Shown: positions 20,222-32,000 of the stretch, piece after piece
Layout: each line of letters opens with the position of its first letter
Position numbering within the stretch: the stretch's first letter is position 1
Origin: Haloquadratum walsbyi C23
GTDB lineage: Archaea; Halobacteriota; Halobacteria; Halobacteriales; Haloferacaceae
Direction: 5' to 3'
Assembly: GCF_000237865.1 (NCBI RefSeq)
Contig: NC_017459.1
Coordinates: 2,220,001-2,252,000 of the forward strand
Length of the DNA: 32,000 bases
The notes under the pieces: model-generated
Seen by the model: only the letters and a program-made list of their open reading frames with translations
What the model was told of the DNA's origin: nothing
Databases searched by the model: none
Made by a program: the position numbers and the translations under genes

Positions 20222-21133
20222 TCACTCCGTAATTGTCAATAATGCGAGAGATGCGAACATCGCTTCCTCAGTTCGCACAACCTCGCTTCCTTGTTGCGGA
20301 ATCGTATTGAGCCAGAGGTCAAACCCTGGATCGATATTGGGTTCAACCACTTCGCTGGCAGTATTGTCACCGGTAGTATCAACATTTGTGGGTGAGACCG
20401 TTTTCTCATCCGTTTGTGTTTGGCTATCCGGCGCATTATCATCGCCAAGGATGACTGGAAGCCCACGACCAGGCGCACCAAAAGCGATTGTCGCTCCCGC
20501 GCGATTGACGCGTGCGGCAAGTTCTGGCAATCGCCCTGTGGTTACTGTGTCACCGTGTCTGGACGTCGCAACGGTGATACCTGCAGCAGCGTGCTCAAGT
20601 GCATCCACAAGGTCCAGGCAGGAGACATCAAACCCCGAAAGTGGAGTATCGACGATCCGTGCCCGGACCGGTTCTCGCGAAGAGATCCTGATAGCAACGC
20701 GTGTCCCCTCTCGTACAGATACCGATTCTGGCACATGGAGAGAGACCGGGTGTTGCAATTCACAATTGACCCGAACGCGGTCATCAGGTCCGACCTCGGT
20801 CACGATTCCCTGTGTTAACGACCCTGAATCAGTTGACTCAGAGCCGGTCGTAGATGACACGCGGAGGGGCGGAAGGACACCGACGTACTCAAGTTCGTCG
20901 CGTCGCCCCCATATCTTCTTTCGGAGATGCGGTGGCGTGGCAGCGTATCGAAGCACCGTTTCAACAAACTCGCCTCCAAGTCGTCGCTCGCCTCCCCGGT
21001 CGGGAAAGACAATGAGGTGGTCTACTCGAAATACTGTTGCCGAACGGGCGATGTATCCGAGCTTGCGAGTCGCCTCGCGTTTATCCTCAGCCTCACGAAC
21101 GACAGAAGACGGAATAAGTACTGACAGCGTCAT
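20222..21133 (-). CDS. SPOUT-superfamily putative RNA methyltransferase (COG2106/DUF171 type), first gene of the L3 operon
   Basis: It contains LSVLIPSSVVREAEDKREATRKLGYIARSATVFRVDHLIVF. It lies 4 nt upstream of L3, the conserved archaeal arrangement. Confidence 0.8.
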   Translation of the reverse strand: MTLSVLIPSSVVREAEDKREATRKLGYIARSATVFRVDHLIVFPDRGGERRLGGEFVETVLRYAATPPHLRKKIWGRRDELEYVGVLPPLRVSSTTGSESTDSGSLTQGIVTEVGPDDRVRVNCELQHPVSLHVPESVSVREGTRVAIRISSREPVRARIVDTPLSGFDVSCLDLVDALEHAAAGITVATSRHGDTVTTGRLPELAARVNRAGATIAFGAPGRGLPVILGDDNAPDSQTQTDEKTVSPTNVDTTGDNTASEVVEPNIDPGFDLWLNTIPQQGSEVVRTEEAMFASLALLTITE

Positions 21134-21399: not shown

Positions 21400-21470
21400 G
21401 CGCTGGTAGTGTAGTGGTATCACGTGACCTTGCCATGGTCACAACCCGGGTTCAAATCCCGGCCAGCGCA
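21400..21470 (+). tRNA. tRNA-Gly (anticodon GCC)
   Basis: I folded it manually. The acceptor stem is GCGCTGG/CCAGCGC and the D arm is GTGT-AGTGGTA-TCAC. The anticodon stem is TGACC/GGTCA with loop TTGCCAT. The T arm is CCGGG-TTCAAAT-CCCGG and the discriminator is A. No CCA is encoded. Confidence 0.93.
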
Positions 21471-21487: not shown

Positions 21488-21826
21488 GATGACATGGTGA
21501 CAATAATAACTTGTCTATAATTTTTAGACTCACACTGCACACACTGAAACTGATTCACTCAGACAAATCATGTCAATGGTGAGCGAGTAGTGGGAGCAGT
21601 AACAGGTGACTATCAGTTATTTTGCCATGGTGAACTACCCCTGCCTACCCAGTGGTTGATGCTGCTTCTTGTTTCTAGGACGATACTCGCAGACATCTAA
21701 ACGGAAAGCAGCACAAGTTCCCTGCGCCACAGTGCACGGGGTATTTTATATAGTATCATTTCGAGGCTTGAAGCTGTCGCGTTCTGAGTATATAAAAACG
21801 GCGTGAGCCGTTAGTGACGGCCCGTA

Positions 21827-23068
21827 ATGTCTGTGCAATTTGATTCAGCAAACAGGCCGTCAGAAGACGTAACGGACGCCTCTAATATCAATTCTACTGA
21901 TCTCGTCGCTGACGAACTGTACTCGCTGCTCGACGAAGTCGACAGCGAGTCGATTGCCGATGAGTTCAAGATTGGGCTCCATTCCGACAAACACGACTTT
22001 ACAAACCACGTCAAAACGGCTGTTCGTGAGGGTCTTGACCCCTCCAGCTCACTCGCTGAACTTGAGGATAAGACCATTGTCGACGACTCACTCGAACACA
22101 TGCCTAAATCACGGTTTTCAGAACTCACGAACGACCGCGACTACTGCGCGGTCGTTCAGCTCCTCTTCGAAGTACTGCACACACCACAGTTGTATCATCA
22201 ACGTGGAGTTCAACGAAAACGACTGGAGTGGATGACACGAGATGTCGTCGCTGTTGATGCCACAAACCTCGAACTTACGCGCTCTGTTGTCGTCTCAGAC
22301 GAGTTCGTTGGAGACGACGACAAGGTCTACAAGATCGACACAGACGATGGTGGTCTCGAACTTCACTGCGCAGCACGTGTGGATGGAGAAAATAAACATC
22401 CACTCGACGCTACTGTTACAGAGGGCGACACCCACGAAAGCCCGCAGTTCGATCTCCTCAAGGAAGATGTCGAGGTCTTTGCAGACCTCGACTCGGTAAT
22501 CTGGGTCTTTGACCGCGCATACACGCGATATCTACGGTTCTGTGAGATCAAGCATAGTGGCAATGATTTTGTCACACTGATGCACTCAGACGCTCGATTT
22601 GAACTCATTGAGACACTCGAAGAGTTCGAGGTCACCGTCTCAGGGAACAACGCCGCTCAGCCGACTCACTCAGATGAGGAATCAACGCGACGGGTTCGTG
22701 ATGAACGAATTGAGTTAGCCGAGACTGGCGAAGAGTTCCGCAGGATTGTGCTGGAAACACCCGATGGAGAAGAGATTGAGTACCTGACGACGCTGGCGTC
22801 GTCAGAGTACGATCCAATCGACGTGATCAACATCTACACACTACGGACAGTAATTGAGATCCTCTTCCGAGAGTGGAAACAGTACCTCAACATCGAGAAC
22901 TTTCACTCGAAATCGCTGAACGGCGTGTTATTCGAGCTGTTCTGTGCATTGATTGGATATATGCTGGTCGTATGGTTTCGCCAACGCCACCCAGTCAAGG
23001 GTGGCGTGGCGCGTGCTATCCAGAAAGTTCGAACCTTCTGGAATGAGACGCTAGATTCATTCGGCTAA
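21827..23068 (+). CDS. IS4-family DDE transposase (413 aa)
   Basis: The candidate catalytic residues are in VAVDATNLEL and VFDRAY. The Y-(2)-R-(3)-E-(6)-K signature is in YTLRTVIEILFREWK. Confidence 0.9.
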   Translation: MSVQFDSANRPSEDVTDASNINSTDLVADELYSLLDEVDSESIADEFKIGLHSDKHDFTNHVKTAVREGLDPSSSLAELEDKTIVDDSLEHMPKSRFSELTNDRDYCAVVQLLFEVLHTPQLYHQRGVQRKRLEWMTRDVVAVDATNLELTRSVVVSDEFVGDDDKVYKIDTDDGGLELHCAARVDGENKHPLDATVTEGDTHESPQFDLLKEDVEVFADLDSVIWVFDRAYTRYLRFCEIKHSGNDFVTLMHSDARFELIETLEEFEVTVSGNNAAQPTHSDEESTRRVRDERIELAETGEEFRRIVLETPDGEEIEYLTTLASSEYDPIDVINIYTLRTVIEILFREWKQYLNIENFHSKSLNGVLFELFCALIGYMLVVWFRQRHPVKGGVARAIQKVRTFWNETLDSFG

Positions 23069-23084
23069 TCAATCTTCACTTCCC

Positions 23085-23120
23085 GGCGACAGCCGTCACC
23101 CACCAGCGACGGCTGTCGCC
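23085..23120. repeat. Perfect 13-bp inverted repeat (hairpin) inside the IS, 17 nt after the transposase stop
   Basis: It reads GGCGACAGCCGTC - 10 nt - GACGGCTGTCGCC. Its arm GCTGTCGC echoes the terminal IR CTGTCGCG. Confidence 0.8.
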
Positions 23121-23329
23121 TGTGCCGCGATCATTGATCATTTCTTTCCCTGAACTGCTACTTCTCTTGGCTCAACACGGATTTCACCGACAACTGTTCG
23201 ATGAGTGAACTCCCATACGATTCTTACCCAGCAGTTCGTTAGGAGAGAATTTCGCCGGGCTTTATGAACTTAGAACGCGACAGGCTTGAAGTCGAAACTG
23301 TCCTGACTGTTGGTCCCTGAGTAGTGTGT

Positions 23330-24076
23330 ATGGGTGATCGTAACCATCGACATGACGCGATTATTGCACTTTCACAGAATGAATATCGTGATGCTGGTGA
23401 TGCATATACGCTTGCTAGCTACGGACGATTATCAGGGTTGAGCAACCGTGGGCGTGAGTTGTTTGACTCTGACGATGCTCCATGGGCTGGATACGCACTT
23501 GAGTCGTTTTTCCTCGCTGCTATCTGCTATCGTTTGAGTGATGGGAAGCCACGAGCTCGTAATCGCGTTGGACAAGGAATCTTGATTGCGAGTGATCTTC
23601 GCGATAACATTCTTGAATCACCTGTCCTTGCGGCTGCATGTGATGAATGGATTGGAACGTTTCGAGCAATCGCCGGTGATGATGATCGAGCAGCAGCAGC
23701 ATATGATCGAGCAATAAAAGGATATAAAAATGCAGATCCTGATGATCCTGTCAGTACAACAACTGAACCACTCTTACAGGCGGCTGAAAGTGGAGTGAGA
23801 CAACTAACACGTCCGAACGATGAGAATGTTAAATGGGACAATATCCATGGGTCAGCGCCAGAGCAAGCACTCTCTCATCGAGTTCAGTTTTTCCGATCCC
23901 GTGTCCCAACAGCGATTCAATCACGTATCGAAGAGCAAACCCTCCATGCACCTCGAGGGTCAACAGAGTATGGGAATGATGAATTCCACTGTCCAGACTG
24001 TGGGTCGCATGATGTAAATTACGTAGCTGATACTGTGTTGTGCCTTCGATGTGACAGCCCGACTGAGCGTCGATAG
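23330..24076 (+). CDS. Hypothetical protein with a helical N-terminal region and a C-terminal Cys4 zinc ribbon
   Basis: I chose the ATG at 23330 (MGDRNHRHD...); the ORF track starts at the GTG at 23324. The C-terminus is CPDCGSHDVNYVADTVLCLRCD. I recognise no family. Confidence 0.6.
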   Translation: MGDRNHRHDAIIALSQNEYRDAGDAYTLASYGRLSGLSNRGRELFDSDDAPWAGYALESFFLAAICYRLSDGKPRARNRVGQGILIASDLRDNILESPVLAAACDEWIGTFRAIAGDDDRAAAAYDRAIKGYKNADPDDPVSTTTEPLLQAAESGVRQLTRPNDENVKWDNIHGSAPEQALSHRVQFFRSRVPTAIQSRIEEQTLHAPRGSTEYGNDEFHCPDCGSHDVNYVADTVLCLRCDSPTERR

Positions 24077-24152: not shown

Positions 24153-24710
24153 TCAAGATGTGGGTCGCCATGGACTTCCGATTTCGTTGCGCTGATAATC
24201 GTTGAATTGCCCATTCTTGAAGATGCTCACACGGCCATTTTCCTCGCTCACAGTCACCGCAAATAAGACACCAGTACGGGTTGATACCTCAACAGCGCTA
24301 AGATGTTTTGTCCCCATCCAATCTGCATATGCAATCTCATCACGACGCTCGACTTCTGCAGCACTTGGGCTTCGGATGCGAACCATCTGCTCTTGAATTG
24401 TCCCATCAGCGGTGATGACAATCGCACCGTCGCGCTTAAAAGCAACATTACGAGCGGCTGTGACGAATGACTCAATCGAGTTCGTTGCCACTCGACACGT
24501 CTCAACCGGCCAGACATTCGCTCCAAGTGGGTCAGCGTACGCCCCAAAATTAACATCAGCAAGGACGATGAAATAAAGACTTGGACCGCTAACATATTGT
24601 TCATCCCATCGGTCAAAAGAGAGGCTTAAACTCTCAGCAACAGCCATCACTCGATGCCGAATCTCATCAACAGTCGCGTGCGTCGCCTGTAGTGGATCAT
24701 CGCTTGACAT
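24153..24710 (-). CDS. Stand-alone DisA_N / diadenylate-cyclase-fold protein, paralog B (185 aa)
   Basis: It contains GPSLYFIVLAD, RDGAIVITADGTIQEQMVRIR and WMGTKHLSAVEVSTRTGVLFAVTVSEENGRVSIFKNGQF. The DGA motif is present. The canonical RHR position reads KHL. Confidence 0.75.
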   Translation of the reverse strand: MSSDDPLQATHATVDEIRHRVMAVAESLSLSFDRWDEQYVSGPSLYFIVLADVNFGAYADPLGANVWPVETCRVATNSIESFVTAARNVAFKRDGAIVITADGTIQEQMVRIRSPSAAEVERRDEIAYADWMGTKHLSAVEVSTRTGVLFAVTVSEENGRVSIFKNGQFNDYQRNEIGSPWRPTS

Positions 24711-24713
24711 ATG

Positions 24714-25241
24714 TTATTTCACTCGCCATCGCCCGCCAAGTTCTTCTCGTTTGTAGTCTTTGAATTCACCGTCTTTAAACACACTCACCCGGCCATTCTC
24801 CTCGCTAAGAGTGACAGCAGCAAGAATCGCATCAAGTGAAGATACCTCGAGTGCGCTGAGATGTTTGGCGCTCATCCAATCGGGATACTCAATGTCCCCG
24901 ATGTCAAGTCCATCTGCAGGACGGATTCTGACCATTCGCTCCTGAAATGTTCCATCGGTGGTGACAATGACTGCTCCATCGCAATCAAATGCGATCTCCT
25001 CAGCGGCTGCAATAACAGGATCAAGATCGCGACTCACAACATGAGCTGTGTCGATTGGCCATCGATTTACTCCAAGCGGATCAGCATACCCGCCAAAACG
25101 AGCACCGGCTGCAACGACGAAGTATAAACTTGGTCCGCGGACGTACTGACTGTCCCAGTTATCAAATCGTCGGCTAACATCTTCAACAACGTATGTAAGT
25201 AGATCAATCAGTTCATCTGTCGTCGCAAATGATGCTTTCAC
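24714..25241 (-). CDS. Stand-alone DisA_N / diadenylate-cyclase-fold protein, paralog A (175 aa)
   Basis: It contains GPSLYFVVAAG, CDGAVIVTTDGTFQERMVRIR and WMSAKHLSALEVSSLDAILAAVTLSEENGRVSVFKDGEF. It has a GTG start with GGAGG 11 nt upstream. By eye it is about 50% identical to paralog B, and a 3-nt gap separates the two genes. Confidence 0.75.
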   Translation of the reverse strand: MKASFATTDELIDLLTYVVEDVSRRFDNWDSQYVRGPSLYFVVAAGARFGGYADPLGVNRWPIDTAHVVSRDLDPVIAAAEEIAFDCDGAVIVTTDGTFQERMVRIRPADGLDIGDIEYPDWMSAKHLSALEVSSLDAILAAVTLSEENGRVSVFKDGEFKDYKREELGGRWRVK

Positions 25242-25723
25242 TTATTCGAACTCCTCCATATACTAACCTGTACGGTACAATCATATCTTTGTTCATTATT
25301 AACATCCTCCTGGCGCTGAAGCGCGAGGATTCCTTCGTGGGGCGTCGGACCGTCTGCATCAGCGGGAAGCGATTCTGAATCTTCCGATTGAAGATTCACA
25401 CGAGTTGTCTTATGACATAACATAACGACGGGTTTCTTGATAATGTCGGTTGTTGAAGAGTTTGTTGGATTCATCGCCGCGCTGACATACGAGGCTTTAT
25501 TTTCAGTTTTACGTAAGTATTCAGACAAAGGATATATCGGTATATCTAATGAAAATGAGATGACATTGCCGACGTATAGATAATATCAAAAGAGGGAATT
25601 AAGAAAATCATATGTGTAATCAAACTGTATCTTCAATCTTGAGCACGTAGTGATATCCCTGAGATCAATTACAGGATATACATTCAATATCGTTTCTGTA
25701 GTCCTGTATGTGTTCAGCGAGGG

Positions 25724-27533: not shown

Positions 27534-28818
27534 CTCGACTCTGCACGTTTATAAACTACCCTCAGAATGGAGAAAGAGGTGGTCAATGTCTTCCATCAGT
27601 CCATCGAGATCGCGGTCTGGTTGATCGCGCACCCAGGAAAACATGTTGTAGATCGTCTCCTTGAGACCGTGTTCGAGTTGTGATCGGAGCGACGAGGCTT
27701 TCGAGACAAGTCGCTCCGAGGCGCTCGATTCCGGACCAAGCCGAAGAAGGCTGTAGGCCAGCATCTGAAGGTGCCAGTGACGACTGGCACCGTCAGAATC
27801 ACGAACCTCGCAGTCTCCTAAGCCAAGATCCTCTTTCGAGTCCTCGAAGAATGTCTCTACTCGCCATCTGTACGAATAGCTCCGAATAATGTGTGCCGAA
27901 GGCGCGTCAATCTTGCTCGTCGCAAGATACTTTACTGGATTCTCTTTGTCCTCATCGGTAACCTTCTCTGTGATTACCAGCCGAACTTCACCTAATTTCG
28001 AGACAGGGACTGTCTTAGTCCAAATTTTGTACGTTTCACCGTCAACTTCTCGCTCTTCCTTGTCGATGCACTCTTCGAGCGCATCGACGCGTCTCTCTTT
28101 GTTCGCGTAGGTCACCTGTCGGTTGCCCCGTAGTGGTCCAATCCAGTCCTTGCCGTGTGATTCGACGTGTTCGATCAGACCGGAGTCATGAGCAAACCAT
28201 GCATCGAAGAGGTAGGTGCCCGCAGGCACACCTACCTCTTCTTCTAATTCCGTGATTATCTCTCGTGCGAGGTCGTATTTTGTCTCCTGTTCGTCTTCCT
28301 CGTCCTCGTCGTCGACCTTCTCGTACTGGCGAAAAGCAAGTGGATAGGACGTTTTATCATCGGTATAGAACGCGTAGACGAGGTTCTGTCCCCAAACAGG
28401 CTCACCCTCAGAGTGATCGTAGAACTCTCCAGCACCGGGAAGGGACTTCCCGGTTCGCTGGATGACTGAATCGTCAATAACGATATAGCCGTTTTGTGAC
28501 CAGCGTGTCTCTCCGTGTTTTTGCAGTTCCTCTAACCGCTCGTGATTGAGCTGATCCTCATCCCAATCGTATTCGGTGATGAACTTGTTGAGTGCTCGGT
28601 CACTTCCGGCAGGAAGGACCTCTCGTGCAATTCCGGTTACAGTCTTGCTGCGGCCCGCAGCAAGACCTGTCACGTACGTTTTGGCGTGAGTCGTTTGATG
28701 ATATGATAGCGAGTCGAATTCATCCAGCACGTCGGTGCACGAGAGGAAATCCGTAATCGGCAGCATCAAGTTTCAATGCTGCCTACATCACGCCCCTATT
28801 TAAACGTGCAGAGCCGAG
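27534..28818 (-). mobile_element. IS701-like insertion sequence (1285 bp) with 22-bp imperfect terminal IRs and a 7-bp target-site duplication
   Basis: The left end is CTCGACTCTGCACGTTTATAAA (27534-27555). The right end is TATTTAAACGTGCAGAGCCGAG (28797-28818). They match at 19 of 22 positions as inverted repeats. CATAGTA flanks both ends (27527-27533 and 28819-28825). Confidence 0.85.
27549..28766 (-). CDS. IS701-like (IS4-superfamily) DDE transposase
   Basis: The N-terminal region, TYVTGLAAGRSKTVTGIAREV...ALNKFITEYDWDEDQLN, is typical of IS701-type enzymes. Other motifs are YIVIDDSVIQRTGKS, YLFDAWFAHDSGL and the Y-(2)-R-(3)-E-(6)-K signature in YSYRWRVETFFEDSK. I chose the ATG at 28764-28766; the ORF track starts one codon earlier at a TTG. 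Confidence 0.88.
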   Translation of the reverse strand: MLPITDFLSCTDVLDEFDSLSYHQTTHAKTYVTGLAAGRSKTVTGIAREVLPAGSDRALNKFITEYDWDEDQLNHERLEELQKHGETRWSQNGYIVIDDSVIQRTGKSLPGAGEFYDHSEGEPVWGQNLVYAFYTDDKTSYPLAFRQYEKVDDEDEEDEQETKYDLAREIITELEEEVGVPAGTYLFDAWFAHDSGLIEHVESHGKDWIGPLRGNRQVTYANKERRVDALEECIDKEEREVDGETYKIWTKTVPVSKLGEVRLVITEKVTDEDKENPVKYLATSKIDAPSAHIIRSYSYRWRVETFFEDSKEDLGLGDCEVRDSDGASRHWHLQMLAYSLLRLGPESSASERLVSKASSLRSQLEHGLKETIYNMFSWVRDQPDRDLDGLMEDIDHLFLHSEGSL

Positions 28819-29363: not shown

Positions 29364-31523
29364 ATGAATAACTGGTCCCGCCGTGAATTCGTTCGGATTG
29401 CAACGGTCGGAGCAGGAGCGGGAATTGCCGGGTGTAACGCTCTTTCGCCGTCCGGGTCGATCAAAACCGATTCGGAGACGGGACGGACCAGTCAAAAGCC
29501 CGCACGTAGCTCCGAGCCCATATCGGGGCGAGTTCTCGATATAGAGGGTGGGGAGATCACCGATGCGAAGCTGAAAGCGATCGTCCCTGGGAGAGGATCC
29601 GTAGCCGAGACAACCACTGATGAGCAAGGTCAATTTGAAGTAGTGGAGGTCGACGAATCTATATGGCTTCGCGCAACGAAAACGGATTTTATCGGACGGA
29701 CTGTCGCTGTGGCTCCGGGAACAAGTCCTCGTATCAGACTCTCACCTCGTGAGGGAACAGTCGCGCTCAGTTTCGGCGGCGACGTAATGTTTGGTCGTCG
29801 GTTCTACGAGGACGACCACCCTCTCGAACCGCACTTCCAGATTCGACCTGATGACCGGATGGAATCACACCAGACGATACTACAGTACATCTCCCCCCTG
29901 TTACAGGACGCCGATCTCACGTCAGTGAATCTCGAAACACCGCTGACGACGACGGCATGGAGACACCCCTCCAAACGGTACCACTTCGTATCGCACCCGG
30001 ACGCCGCACCCGCGATGGCCGATGCCGGGGTCGACTACGTCGCACTGGGGAACAACCACACGCTGGACGCATTGACACCGGGATTGGATGAGACCTTACA
30101 GGCACTTTCTGCGGCCGGGATCGAACAGTCTGGTGCTGGCAAGTCCAGCACAGAAGCGTGGGAACCGACGTACTTCGAACGGCGGGGACTTACCATCGGC
30201 TTGGTCTCCTGTACTACCGTTACGGGCGACCAGTACAATATCGACTGGTCAGCCGACGACAACCAGTCCGAGACATACTCAGTATCGGGAGACAACGTGA
30301 CCGGGATACCCGACACTGAGCAACTGACGTTCTCCGGGAGTGTCGGGGTCGCAGCGGCGACTCGCGACCGAATATCTCGGACGGTATCGGAGGTCGATGC
30401 GAACGCGGACGTAACCGTCGTCCAGATTCACGGCGGCTCCGAGTATCAACAGGAACCGACCGACAAAATCAGACGCCTGACCGAAACGGCAAAGACAGCG
30501 GGTGCAGACGTTGTCGTCAATCACCATCCACACGTAACCGGTGGAGTGGAACTGCAGGATGAGACACTGGTCGCGTGGACGCTTGGAAACCTCGTGTTCG
30601 ACCAAGAGTTCTGGTCGACGTTTCCGTCGTATCTCTTGACGGTCCACGTCACTGCTGATGGAATTCCCAGAGCGTACGTTGACCCGCTATTAATTGAAGG
30701 ATACGTTCCGAAAGGGGTGGTCGACAAACCGAGGACGTGGCAACTCCGAGAAACTGCCGCGTTGTCGTCGGATGAGTTCTCACTTGACCACGACAGGCTG
30801 GAATACATCGCAAAAGACGAGACACCGGCCCGGACAGCAACCCGAACGCTGGACGGAAATGGGACGATTTACACGCGGAACTCGGGATGGGTCAACCGAG
30901 TCATAGACGGGGCGGAGTCTGTCGAACTGGGCCGTGACCTGCTTCCGACTGGAACGTTCGACGACCCTGATATCGACGACGATCGGCACGAAGGTCCGTT
31001 GTGGCGGTTCAGTCGTGGAGCGGACTCCAACGGTCCGGAGTTCGGATACGACGGGAGTGGCGGGATTCAACTCTCTCGAACCGCGGATAACACCGAACGG
31101 TCGGTTTTGACGACGACCGAGCGTGTACCAATGGTCGGACCGACGACCCTTCTCGGCCAGTACCGCCACGAGACGGACACCCGACTGGAACTGCTCGTGC
31201 GATGGTACGAGTCGACCAGTGGTTCGGCACTCGATTCAATGTTGATCGACCTCGACCGAACGACTGGCTGGGAAAGTCTCGAACGGTCGCTGTCGACACC
31301 CGAGGAAGCTACCCACGTCCGCTTTTATTTCCGGCTCTATCCTCCCGATGACGGAGAGAAACGCGTCGCCAATTTTGACAACATTCACTTGGTCGAATGG
31401 ACCGAGTCAGCAACCAGCAGCGACAAAGACTGCGATTTCCTCCGTGTGCATGAGTCCTCGACCATCGAGTTTACATCGAGTAGCCAATCTGACGAGGCTA
31501 TCTCGTGGGAAGCTCTCGATTAA
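29364..31523 (+). CDS. Secreted Tat-lipoprotein with a CapA/PGA_cap metallophosphatase-type domain (poly-gamma-glutamate capsule synthesis family), an N-terminal CarboxypepD_reg-like domain and a C-terminal jelly-roll/CBM-like region
   Basis: The Tat signal and lipobox are MNNWSRREFVRIATVGAGAGIAGC. The PGA_cap blocks are SFGGDVMFGRRF, VNLETPLT, YVALGNNHTLD, VQIHGGSEY, VVVNHHPHV and GNLVFDQ. It is visibly GC-richer than its surroundings. Confidence 0.82.
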   Translation: MNNWSRREFVRIATVGAGAGIAGCNALSPSGSIKTDSETGRTSQKPARSSEPISGRVLDIEGGEITDAKLKAIVPGRGSVAETTTDEQGQFEVVEVDESIWLRATKTDFIGRTVAVAPGTSPRIRLSPREGTVALSFGGDVMFGRRFYEDDHPLEPHFQIRPDDRMESHQTILQYISPLLQDADLTSVNLETPLTTTAWRHPSKRYHFVSHPDAAPAMADAGVDYVALGNNHTLDALTPGLDETLQALSAAGIEQSGAGKSSTEAWEPTYFERRGLTIGLVSCTTVTGDQYNIDWSADDNQSETYSVSGDNVTGIPDTEQLTFSGSVGVAAATRDRISRTVSEVDANADVTVVQIHGGSEYQQEPTDKIRRLTETAKTAGADVVVNHHPHVTGGVELQDETLVAWTLGNLVFDQEFWSTFPSYLLTVHVTADGIPRAYVDPLLIEGYVPKGVVDKPRTWQLRETAALSSDEFSLDHDRLEYIAKDETPARTATRTLDGNGTIYTRNSGWVNRVIDGAESVELGRDLLPTGTFDDPDIDDDRHEGPLWRFSRGADSNGPEFGYDGSGGIQLSRTADNTERSVLTTTERVPMVGPTTLLGQYRHETDTRLELLVRWYESTSGSALDSMLIDLDRTTGWESLERSLSTPEEATHVRFYFRLYPPDDGEKRVANFDNIHLVEWTESATSSDKDCDFLRVHESSTIEFTSSSQSDEAISWEALD

Positions 31524-31707: not shown

Positions 31708-31803
31708 CAACTGTCCTCTATTAGAGTGTAGCAGATACGATTCTCTGACGTTCGTTCACTTCTTTCCCGAAATGTATGGATAGAAGGCTGGCCTCGGCAC
31801 TCA
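31708..31803. repeat. Duplicated junction module B2
   Basis: See A2. It lies only 8 nt after B1, whereas A1 and A2 are 165 nt apart. Confidence 0.7.
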
Positions 31804-32000
31804 TAGGGTTCATCATTGATGGATGCCACTCCAACTCAGAACGGTATCATCGTCATCAGCCAATTATATCATTCATCACCAATCAAAAGAACATTGTGCC
31901 AACAGAATCCCGGGTGTGGTTGTATTCGATAACTGCACGTTCTGCAGACAGTCACTCAAAACGATATATGTCTAAATAACCTGAGCGAATGCAAGCGTCC

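Follow-up and report, generated by a model that had tools for sequence, protein, structure and literature searches.

The DNA analysed here, referred to as the window, is a stretch of 32,000 nucleotides (nt) from Haloquadratum walsbyi C23 (RefSeq assembly GCF_000237865.1, contig NC_017459.1, positions 2,220,001 to 2,252,000 of the forward strand). Between positions 24153 and 25241 of the window lie two small adjacent genes, B and A, whose products resemble diadenylate cyclases (DACs), the enzymes of cyclic di-AMP (c-di-AMP) synthesis, with the canonical RHR motif of the active site altered in both. The question raised by the locus is what such a pair does: whether it is catalytic, which nucleotide it would make and which process the product would serve. 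The reading preferred here, given somewhat better than even chances, is that the pair is an accessory, heteromeric, minimal DAC-type cyclase of a Halobacteriales-specific subfamily, with a nucleotide signal tied to ion balance.

Both genes are encoded on the minus strand. The upstream paralog B (24714..25241; 175 aa) begins with GTG and is of an ‘SAKH’ type, and the downstream paralog A (24153..24710; 185 aa) begins with ATG and is of the ‘GTKH’ type shared with the single-copy members of the family. The TAA stop of B and the ATG of A are separated by a spacer of 3 nt (24711..24713, minus strand) in a shared frame, the junction reading TAA CAT ATG. A ribosome-binding site dedicated to A would not fit into this spacer, and translation of the two genes is thereby implied to be coupled. 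Identity between the proteins is 51% across 176 residues (BLASTP, E 5e-69), and an earlier note on this DNA, which had described tandem paralogs of 175 and 185 aa with a 3-nt gap and about 50% identity, was accurate on each of these points.

The motifs quoted in that note were likewise all found. GPSLYF(I/V)V is present in both proteins, followed by DGAIVI, TKHLSA and VSEENGRVSIF in A and by DGAVIV, AKHLSA and LSEENGRVSVF in B. The codons of the three central motifs were checked in the DNA of the minus strand. In A, these are D94-G95-A96 (GAC GGT GCG, 24423..24431), K135-H136-L137 at the position of the canonical RHR (AAA CAT CTT, 24300..24308) and S155-E156-E157 at the canonical metal/phosphate site (AGC GAG GAA, 24240..24248). 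Their counterparts in B are D88-G89-A90 (GAT GGA GCA, 24972..24980), K126-H127-L128 (AAA CAT CTC, 24858..24866), preceded by S-A instead of G-T, and S146-E147-E148 (AGC GAG GAG, 24798..24806).

Fold and active-site residues

On the predicted structures, it is practically certain that A and B adopt the DAC fold. Monomer models of both were built with AlphaFold2 from alignments of the family, with a mean predicted local confidence (pLDDT) of 73 and a predicted template-modelling score (pTM) of 0.74 for A, and values of 82.8 and 0.84 for B. When the models were compared with the Protein Data Bank (PDB) by Foldseek, the matches were exclusively diadenylate cyclases (DisA, CdaA/DacA, CdaM/DacM and CdaS) at a probability of 1.0. 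The top matches were CdaA, DacM and DisA for B and DisA, CdaA and CdaM for A. The template-modelling (TM) scores normalised to the query were 0.50-0.59, over alignments of 150-180 columns. These alignments use the whole chain, so each protein would consist of one DAC domain and no extra domain.

Sequence profiles point the same way with less force. Protein A reaches 37.2 bits against the Pfam DAC profile (PF02457), above the gathering cut-off of 27, whereas B stays below it with 20.6 bits, its 51% identity to A notwithstanding. A search with this profile had been proposed in the earlier note and is passed by one of the two proteins. Both matches span profile positions 51-118 of 119 only. The NCBIfam models of CdaS, CdaA, CdaM, DacZ and DisA gave weak matches of 13-23 bits, far under their cut-offs. 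A profile-profile alignment (hhalign) of the family with CdaA-like proteins was returned at 97.8% probability, and this alignment, the Pfam match of A and the structural matches of both models uphold the fold that had been recognised from the motifs.

The hhalign alignment sets R93-D94-G95-A96 of A on H-D-G-A, G133-T134-K135-H136-L137 on G-T-R-H-R and S155-E156-E157 on S-E-E. The CdaA chains found in a sequence search of the PDB agree on the placement of GTKHL on GTRHR and of SEE on SEE. Residue D94 corresponds to about position 194 of the DacZ profile, the Asp which is mutated in the inactive DacZ variant D194A. A different register, with the family RDGA placed on the ‘RRIGAL’ strand of CdaA (that is, DGA on ‘GAL’), appeared in weak first-domain alignments by HMMER. 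It was rejected, as these score below 0 bits and as Pfam, the NCBIfam DacZ model and hhalign all set DGA on DGA with consistent spacing.

The earlier statement that DGA is kept and that RHR reads KHL in both proteins is thus correct. Only the His is identical to the canonical motif, and the Lys is a conservative change. The description of the motif as ‘degenerate’ is misleading, as K-H-(L/M) is fixed throughout the family under strong conservation. Among 208 homologue clusters, the motif reads GTKHL in 126, GTKHM in 35, SAKHL in 31, SAKHM in 7 and GTKHR in 2, and the nearest outgroups and sister proteins carry GTRH(M/V)SA. These sequences have a basic residue at position 1 and His at position 2 throughout, with a hydrophobic residue at position 3 in all clusters but a few. 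Approximately 37 positions are invariant across alignments of 30-206 sequences, including (in the numbering of protein A) E26, F32, W35, GP-LY, D60-LG-WP, DGA, DGT-Q, MVR, WM, K135, S138-A139, E141 and SEE-GR. The Asp of DGA, the Glu of SEE, K135, H136 and S138 are unchanged in more than 200 clusters. Judged from these alignments, KHL is a conserved variant of the family and not a sign of decay.

Two other groups of small DAC proteins further undercut the term. The third Arg is also replaced, by Ile, in a family of marine archaeal DACs, where GTRHI is found in 115 of 120 clusters. With DGF and GGR motifs, the PanS enzymes of the Panoptoo system are nevertheless active and produce 3'3'-cUA or c-di-AMP (Ragucci et al., bioRxiv 2026), and a deviation such as KHL hence does not predict inactivity.

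A comparison with the established DAC systems places A and B apart from each of them. They share with CdaA/DacA and DisA the fold (Foldseek probability 1.0, TM approximately 0.5-0.6) and the alignable DGA, Thr-basic-His and SEE motifs. They differ in the absence of a membrane anchor, HhH or linker domain, in KH(L/M) for RHR and in an R, C or Q before DGA. The spacing from DGA to KH is 41 residues compared with approximately 32 in the aligned CdaA-like sequence, a loop longer by approximately nine residues. The motifs GPSLY, DPLGxNxWP, DGTxQ, MVR and WM are invariant and specific to the family with respect to CdaA and DisA.

DacZ is the essential diadenylate cyclase of the same organisms, the haloarchaea, and D94 aligns with its D194 within the shared DAC domain. 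Scores on its model (NF041371) are 16.4 bits for A and 16.5 bits for B, against an equivalog cut-off of 430. The N-terminal pyruvate-kinase-C-like domain reported for DacZ (Braun et al. 2019) is lacking in both proteins, in keeping with the DAC-only architecture proposed in the earlier note. DacZ is a universal, single-copy housekeeping enzyme, whereas the present family is patchy, plasmid-borne and multi-copy in some genomes. A DacZ homologue of H. walsbyi, WP_011571793.1, is listed by Braun et al. (2019), who describe the catalytically important residues of DacZ as conserved, and this answers the question whether a dacZ exists elsewhere in the genome. No dacZ gene was present within the family loci retrieved, and a weak plasmid match (H26) considered as DacZ was rejected as a truncated member of the haloarchaeal family. 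A sequence search of the PDB returned no archaeal CdaZ.

CdaS is similar in size, with an N-terminal helix before the DAC core, and is among the Foldseek matches (2fb5). Its model (NF038328) gives 23.1 bits for A, against a cut-off of 225, and no match for B. CdaS itself has N-terminal regulatory helices, a canonical RHR and a homo-hexameric assembly, and is a sporulation DAC limited to Bacillus-type bacteria. PanS resembles A and B in being small and DAC-only, with non-canonical active-site motifs and a longer loop in the lid region, and its active-site asymmetry leads to a product other than c-di-AMP (Ragucci et al., bioRxiv 2026). PanS is bacterial, however, has DGF/GGR motifs, assembles as a homodimer whose asymmetry is conformational, and invariably occurs together with the membrane effector PanE. 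The motifs of A and B are DGA and GTKHL/SAKHL, and any asymmetry would be encoded by two paralogs.

The marine archaeal family (P0310 and P0322-P0440; approximately 190 aa) is likewise small and has a hydrophobic residue in place of the third Arg. Position 1 remains Arg, however, and the motifs of the haloarchaeal family are missing. All of its members pass the Pfam DAC profile, and among curated models it scores highest on DacZ, with 58 bits. Among the matches listed, a homologue search seeded with the DacZ-like P0310 recovered this family only and no haloarchaeal DacZ. The family is large and is drawn from marine metagenomes including Tara, with GTRHI(S/T)A for GTRHRAA and a variable residue before DGA.

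The paired genes and their family

The DAC active site is formed by two domains face to face, each of which holds one nucleoside triphosphate. Since two facing domains are needed, a coupled or fused pair of distinct paralogs supports an A:B heteromer with an asymmetric site. Such a heteromer is considered probable on the comparative evidence, and the idea of a heteromeric pair in the earlier note has gained strong support from the gene order, the stop/start overlaps, the single B clade and the B-A fusions described below.

The survey of genomes covered the 80 best loci of the family. B is followed by A in approximately 14 of these, a fused gene is present in one, and the remainder are single-copy. 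In a neighbour-joining (NJ) tree, the upstream (B) copies fall into a single clade (bootstrap 78%), and the downstream (A) copies group weakly among the single-copy genes. The B copies share a set of changes (numbered as in protein A). All 13 B orthologues have G133S and T134A, with loss of the canonical Thr, and a deletion of three residues in the loop between DGA and KH. Position 11 is Phe in all 13, where A copies have His and single-copy members Tyr, and C72A is found in 12 of the 13. All other family invariants are kept by B, which evolves as slowly as A (mean within-group identity 0.62 compared with 0.65).

The distance from the stop of B to the start of A is -4 to +8 nt in most pair loci, as a gap of 3-8 nt or as a 4-nt overlap, the latter in three of them (L007, L011 and L052). 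At locus L005 the two are joined in a full B(1-178)-linker-A(217-394) protein. Two further proteins, P0002 and P0028, are fusions homologous to this type, with 78% and 66% identity, to give three diverged fusions in total. Apparent fusions at L008 and L016 were rejected as over-extended open reading frames (ORFs) in another frame. Read from these comparisons, A and B derive from one old duplication and have been kept together since, with coupled translation and with fusion in one lineage.

It is proposed that B and A form a head-to-head pair, while the single-copy relatives would form homodimers. With the canonical Thr lost from B (T134A, with G133S) and its loop three residues shorter, the joint active site of a B:A pair would be intrinsically asymmetric.

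The family as a whole is narrow and haloarchaeal. The homologous clusters number more than 400, and all those with a named source come from Halobacteriales, the best being that of H. walsbyi at 97% identity. An exhaustive search of 1.84 billion representatives with a hidden Markov model (HMM) returned only 114 proteins at E <= 1e-3, hence the narrowness. There were 153 matches among 185,579 species genomes, several of which carry two or three copies, and 28 haloarchaeal plasmids carry a homologue. No phage copies of the family were found in the search. Haloferax volcanii is reported to have DacZ only, the family being absent. The family is thus accessory, with a patchy distribution, frequent carriage on plasmids and a single copy in most cases. 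In RefSeq, these proteins are already annotated as ‘diadenylate cyclase’. No paper on this haloarchaeal family was found in the literature searched, a search that did not extend to the DAC census of Galperin 2023. The alignments set apart a subfamily of minimal DACs in haloarchaea, in which KH(L/M) is fixed and which in one sub-lineage is paired and accompanied by a 2H phosphoesterase.

Two sets of more distant proteins were seen in the same searches. Six very acidic proteins of 188-216 aa (P0237, P0249, P0250, P0259, P0265 and P0270) are distant full-length relatives of the family and carry G(T/G)(R/K)H(x)SA, which reads GTKHRSA in P0259. Another three of 316-388 aa (P0314, P0319 and P0321) begin with a long stretch that resembles a coiled coil and end in a divergent DAC-like region. 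Their motifs are ERDGALL, SA(K/R)HNAA and SEET, and they are without a curated family match.

Genomic neighbours and competing explanations

One partner gene encodes a 2H phosphoesterase (PF13563), which lies directly 3' of A on the same strand in seven pair loci (L005-L009, L011 and L052). Its start is at -4 to approximately +125 nt from A in most of the seven and its length is approximately 220 aa. Both HxT motifs are intact in six of the seven enzymes, as at 10549-11217 of L008, the copy of L007 being truncated. The gene is lacking at the pair loci of Haloquadratum, at L004 and L012 and at L016. Cleavage of cyclic dinucleotides is established for Acb1, an enzyme with the 2H fold. The co-operonic phosphoesterase would probably degrade the product of the pair in these other lineages, the gene being absent in Haloquadratum.

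Another association is with ion transport. All nine annotated plasmid loci that were inspected in the RefSeq annotation sit among cation-homeostasis genes. Trk/RCK, APC and Usp genes are neighbours on the plasmids of Haloarcula hispanica (pHH126), Haloplanus and Halorientalis, and CBS and MgtE genes on those of Halorussus, Haladaptatus and Haloferax gibbonsii. MscS and cation:proton antiporters are found on the plasmids of Natronosalvus and Natrinema, and an antiporter lies directly 3' on that of Haloarcula marina. Across the 80 genome loci, Usp genes were counted 23 times near and 9 times far, and TrkA_N 7 times near and once far. It has been reported that dacZ of Haloferax shares an operon with mscS2 and that transporter-linked RCK proteins bind c-di-AMP, and some homologues of the present family similarly adjoin MscS, Trk and RCK genes. 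The occurrence of homologues among genes for K+, Mg2+ and Na+/H+ transport, MscS, CBS and Usp proteins makes it likely that the signal feeds ion and osmotic homeostasis, and it would do so alongside the housekeeping DacZ. Taken alone, a role in ion and osmotic signalling is put at even odds. That the pair is catalytically active is judged moderately probable. The most likely product would be c-di-AMP or a close relative, although for c-di-AMP itself the chances are put at somewhat under one half.

Several observations weigh against this reading. The third Arg of RHR is lost, as is the His before DGA (R, C or Q instead), and the RHR-to-AAA mutants of MtDisA and CdaS are reported to be inactive with ATP binding abolished. 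Sequence profiles match the C-terminal half of the DAC domain only. An excess of c-di-AMP is toxic in Haloferax, so that an additional cyclase without regulation would put the cell at risk. The NJ bootstrap for monophyly of the A copies is only 34%. The association with ion transport is modest in the 80 genome loci (24 near and 15 far), and the nine plasmid loci reduce to approximately five independent contexts. Otherwise, the genes directly beside the family members vary widely, and in Haloquadratum they are an FMN-dependent dehydrogenase and a zinc-ribbon protein and not transporters. Among 107 immediate neighbours there is no universally conserved one, with no partner family in more than seven; the families met most often are Usp (6), 2H phosphoesterase and histidine kinase (5 each) and amino-acid permease (4).

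The same facts can be read in other ways. The loss of part of RHR and of the His before DGA, the inactivity of the RHR-to-AAA mutants, the missing canonical Thr in B, the presence of DacZ in the cell and the toxicity of overproduced c-di-AMP would all suit a pair of pseudo-enzymes. These would keep the DAC fold to bind ATP or the c-di-AMP made by DacZ and would serve as a buffer, a sensor or a regulator (of DacZ or of transporters, for instance). The invariance of the residues required for the chemistry (the Asp of DGA and the Glu of SEE), and of K135, H136 and S138, in more than 200 clusters is at odds with this, as is the activity of PanS enzymes which stray further from the consensus. An intact co-operonic phosphoesterase also fits a synthesised product better than a binder, and the pseudo-enzyme explanation is regarded as unlikely, at about one chance in five. 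A catalytic pair could, on the other hand, make something other than c-di-AMP: a mixed-base, linear or otherwise non-canonical product, with the 2H phosphoesterase as its dedicated hydrolase. The half-sites differ (GT or SA before KH, and three residues in loop length), and the spacing of 41 residues from DGA to KH, compared with approximately 32, lengthens the region that matches the base-choice lid loop of PanS. The invariant, family-specific DGTxQ and MVR fall within this segment, and the partner is a 2H enzyme and not of the DHH type. Most members of the family are single-copy and presumably symmetric, however, and the plasmid contexts match the classical target families of c-di-AMP. This alternative is accordingly held to be rather improbable, a little more so than the pseudo-enzymes. 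The same low standing is given to its most specific form, an obligate B:A heterodimer that would make an asymmetric, non-canonical messenger hydrolysed by the co-operonic 2H phosphoesterase in related lineages.

The rival with the least support is a role in anti-virus defence or decoy signalling, in which a minimal DAC of Panoptoo type would constitutively make a signal that restrains a toxic effector. Bacterial DAC-only proteins have lately been shown to act in this way, the family is accessory, patchy and often plasmid-borne, and insertion sequence (IS) elements flank the locus in the window. A defence module had been suggested in the earlier note and found no backing, as no recurrent defence context is seen. 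PADLOC gave no match for A, B or their neighbours in the window, and defence models found nothing recurrent among the 107 immediate neighbours, of which at most two share any model; Cas12f-like matches among them fit TnpB transposon proteins. No conserved effector partner was found in this set, nor a membrane effector adjoining the genes. Panoptoo has an S2TM-beta membrane effector, whereas the neighbours in the window are a soluble zinc-ribbon protein and the FMN dehydrogenase, and the motifs differ from the DGF/GGR of PanS. With no phage copies found and the Haloquadratum locus stable, syntenic and compositionally native, a defence function is very improbable. The proposed heteromeric cyclase, with a signal tied to ion balance, is retained as the best explanation.

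The Haloquadratum locus and its significance

The DNA of the window is 86-89% identical to that of the J07HQW1 and J07HQW2 assemblies. The gene order in both is FMN dehydrogenase, B, A, a convergent gene for a 250-aa zinc-ribbon protein, a tRNA, an RNA methyltransferase, L3 and L4. Two IS elements are present in the window and both are absent at these loci. The element at 21774-23283 (1510 bp) carries terminal inverted repeats of 23 nt, encodes a DDE_Tnp_1 transposase of 413 aa and is inserted approximately 300 nt from the tRNA gene (21400-21470). The element at 27534-28818 (1285 bp), upstream of the FMN dehydrogenase gene, is bounded by inverted repeats of 18 nt and encodes a DDE_5-type transposase of 406 aa. 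The two elements are of different families, and each is a strain-specific insertion. The GC content at third codon positions (GC3) is 0.44 for A and 0.40 for B, compared with 0.44 for L3, 0.38 for L4 and 0.57 for the transposases. A composite transposon or recent acquisition was rejected on the evidence of the unrelated IS elements, the IS-free synteny and the native GC3. For the same reasons, the earlier argument that the position between two IS elements marks the pair as accessory fails, while the accessory nature itself stands on the patchy and plasmid-borne distribution of the family.

The convergent gene (23324..24076, plus strand) encodes an acidic protein of 250 aa with a C-terminal CPDC...CLRC zinc ribbon, for which no Pfam or PADLOC match was obtained. 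It adjoins A in every Haloquadratum locus examined (L001-L003 and L085-L088), and in a second Haloquadratum species B-A and the convergent gene are kept in a different genomic context. It was not found beside family members outside Haloquadratum. This constant adjacency makes the zinc-ribbon protein a possible lineage-specific partner of the pair.

B and the FMN dehydrogenase gene are separated by a spacer of 482 nt in the window (25242-25723), where J07HQW1 has 249 nt and J07HQW2 has 182 nt, and its sequence is unrelated to theirs beyond approximately 57 nt upstream of B. A 96-aa ORF at 25238-25528, the stop of which overlaps the start of B by 4 nt (GTGA), was considered as a third gene of the operon. 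It was rejected as its DNA is not conserved in J07HQW1 and J07HQW2 and as it has no family match. A GC-rich hairpin is located near 25305-25330, within the same spacer.

Other features of the window lie further from the pair. A match to the Rfam ribosomal-protein leader L4-Archaeoglobi (20688-20787, minus strand; 60.5 bits against a gathering cut-off of 34.5) is not intergenic but falls inside the Methyltrn_RNA_3 gene (20222-21133), approximately 470 nt upstream of the start of L3. The C/D-box small RNA sR-tMet is matched at 31790-31861 (minus strand; 53.6 bits against 50). At 29364-31523 (plus strand), a gene encodes a PGA_cap protein, similar to those of poly-gamma-glutamate capsule synthesis, with an N-terminal CarboxypepD_reg domain. 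Its GC content of 0.574 and GC3 of 0.63, well above the neighbouring native genes, suggest a foreign origin.

Work on archaeal c-di-AMP rests on one enzyme, DacZ, and according to reviews neither the degrading enzyme nor most of the receptors are known. In many haloarchaea there is a further DAC lineage of minimal structure, often on plasmids and among transporter types controlled by c-di-AMP. The B-A pair and its fusions bear on whether DACs can work as built-in asymmetric heterodimers, which is topical since the discovery of 3'3'-cUA as a product of PanS, and on whether the adjacent 2H phosphoesterase hydrolyses cyclic dinucleotides. Should the proteins merely be extra c-di-AMP synthases, the result would usefully refine annotation but would establish no new principle. 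If the pair does make an asymmetric messenger, it would represent a self-contained haloarchaeal second-messenger module parallel to that of DacZ and c-di-AMP, and the 2H phosphoesterase would be a candidate archaeal cyclic-dinucleotide phosphodiesterase.

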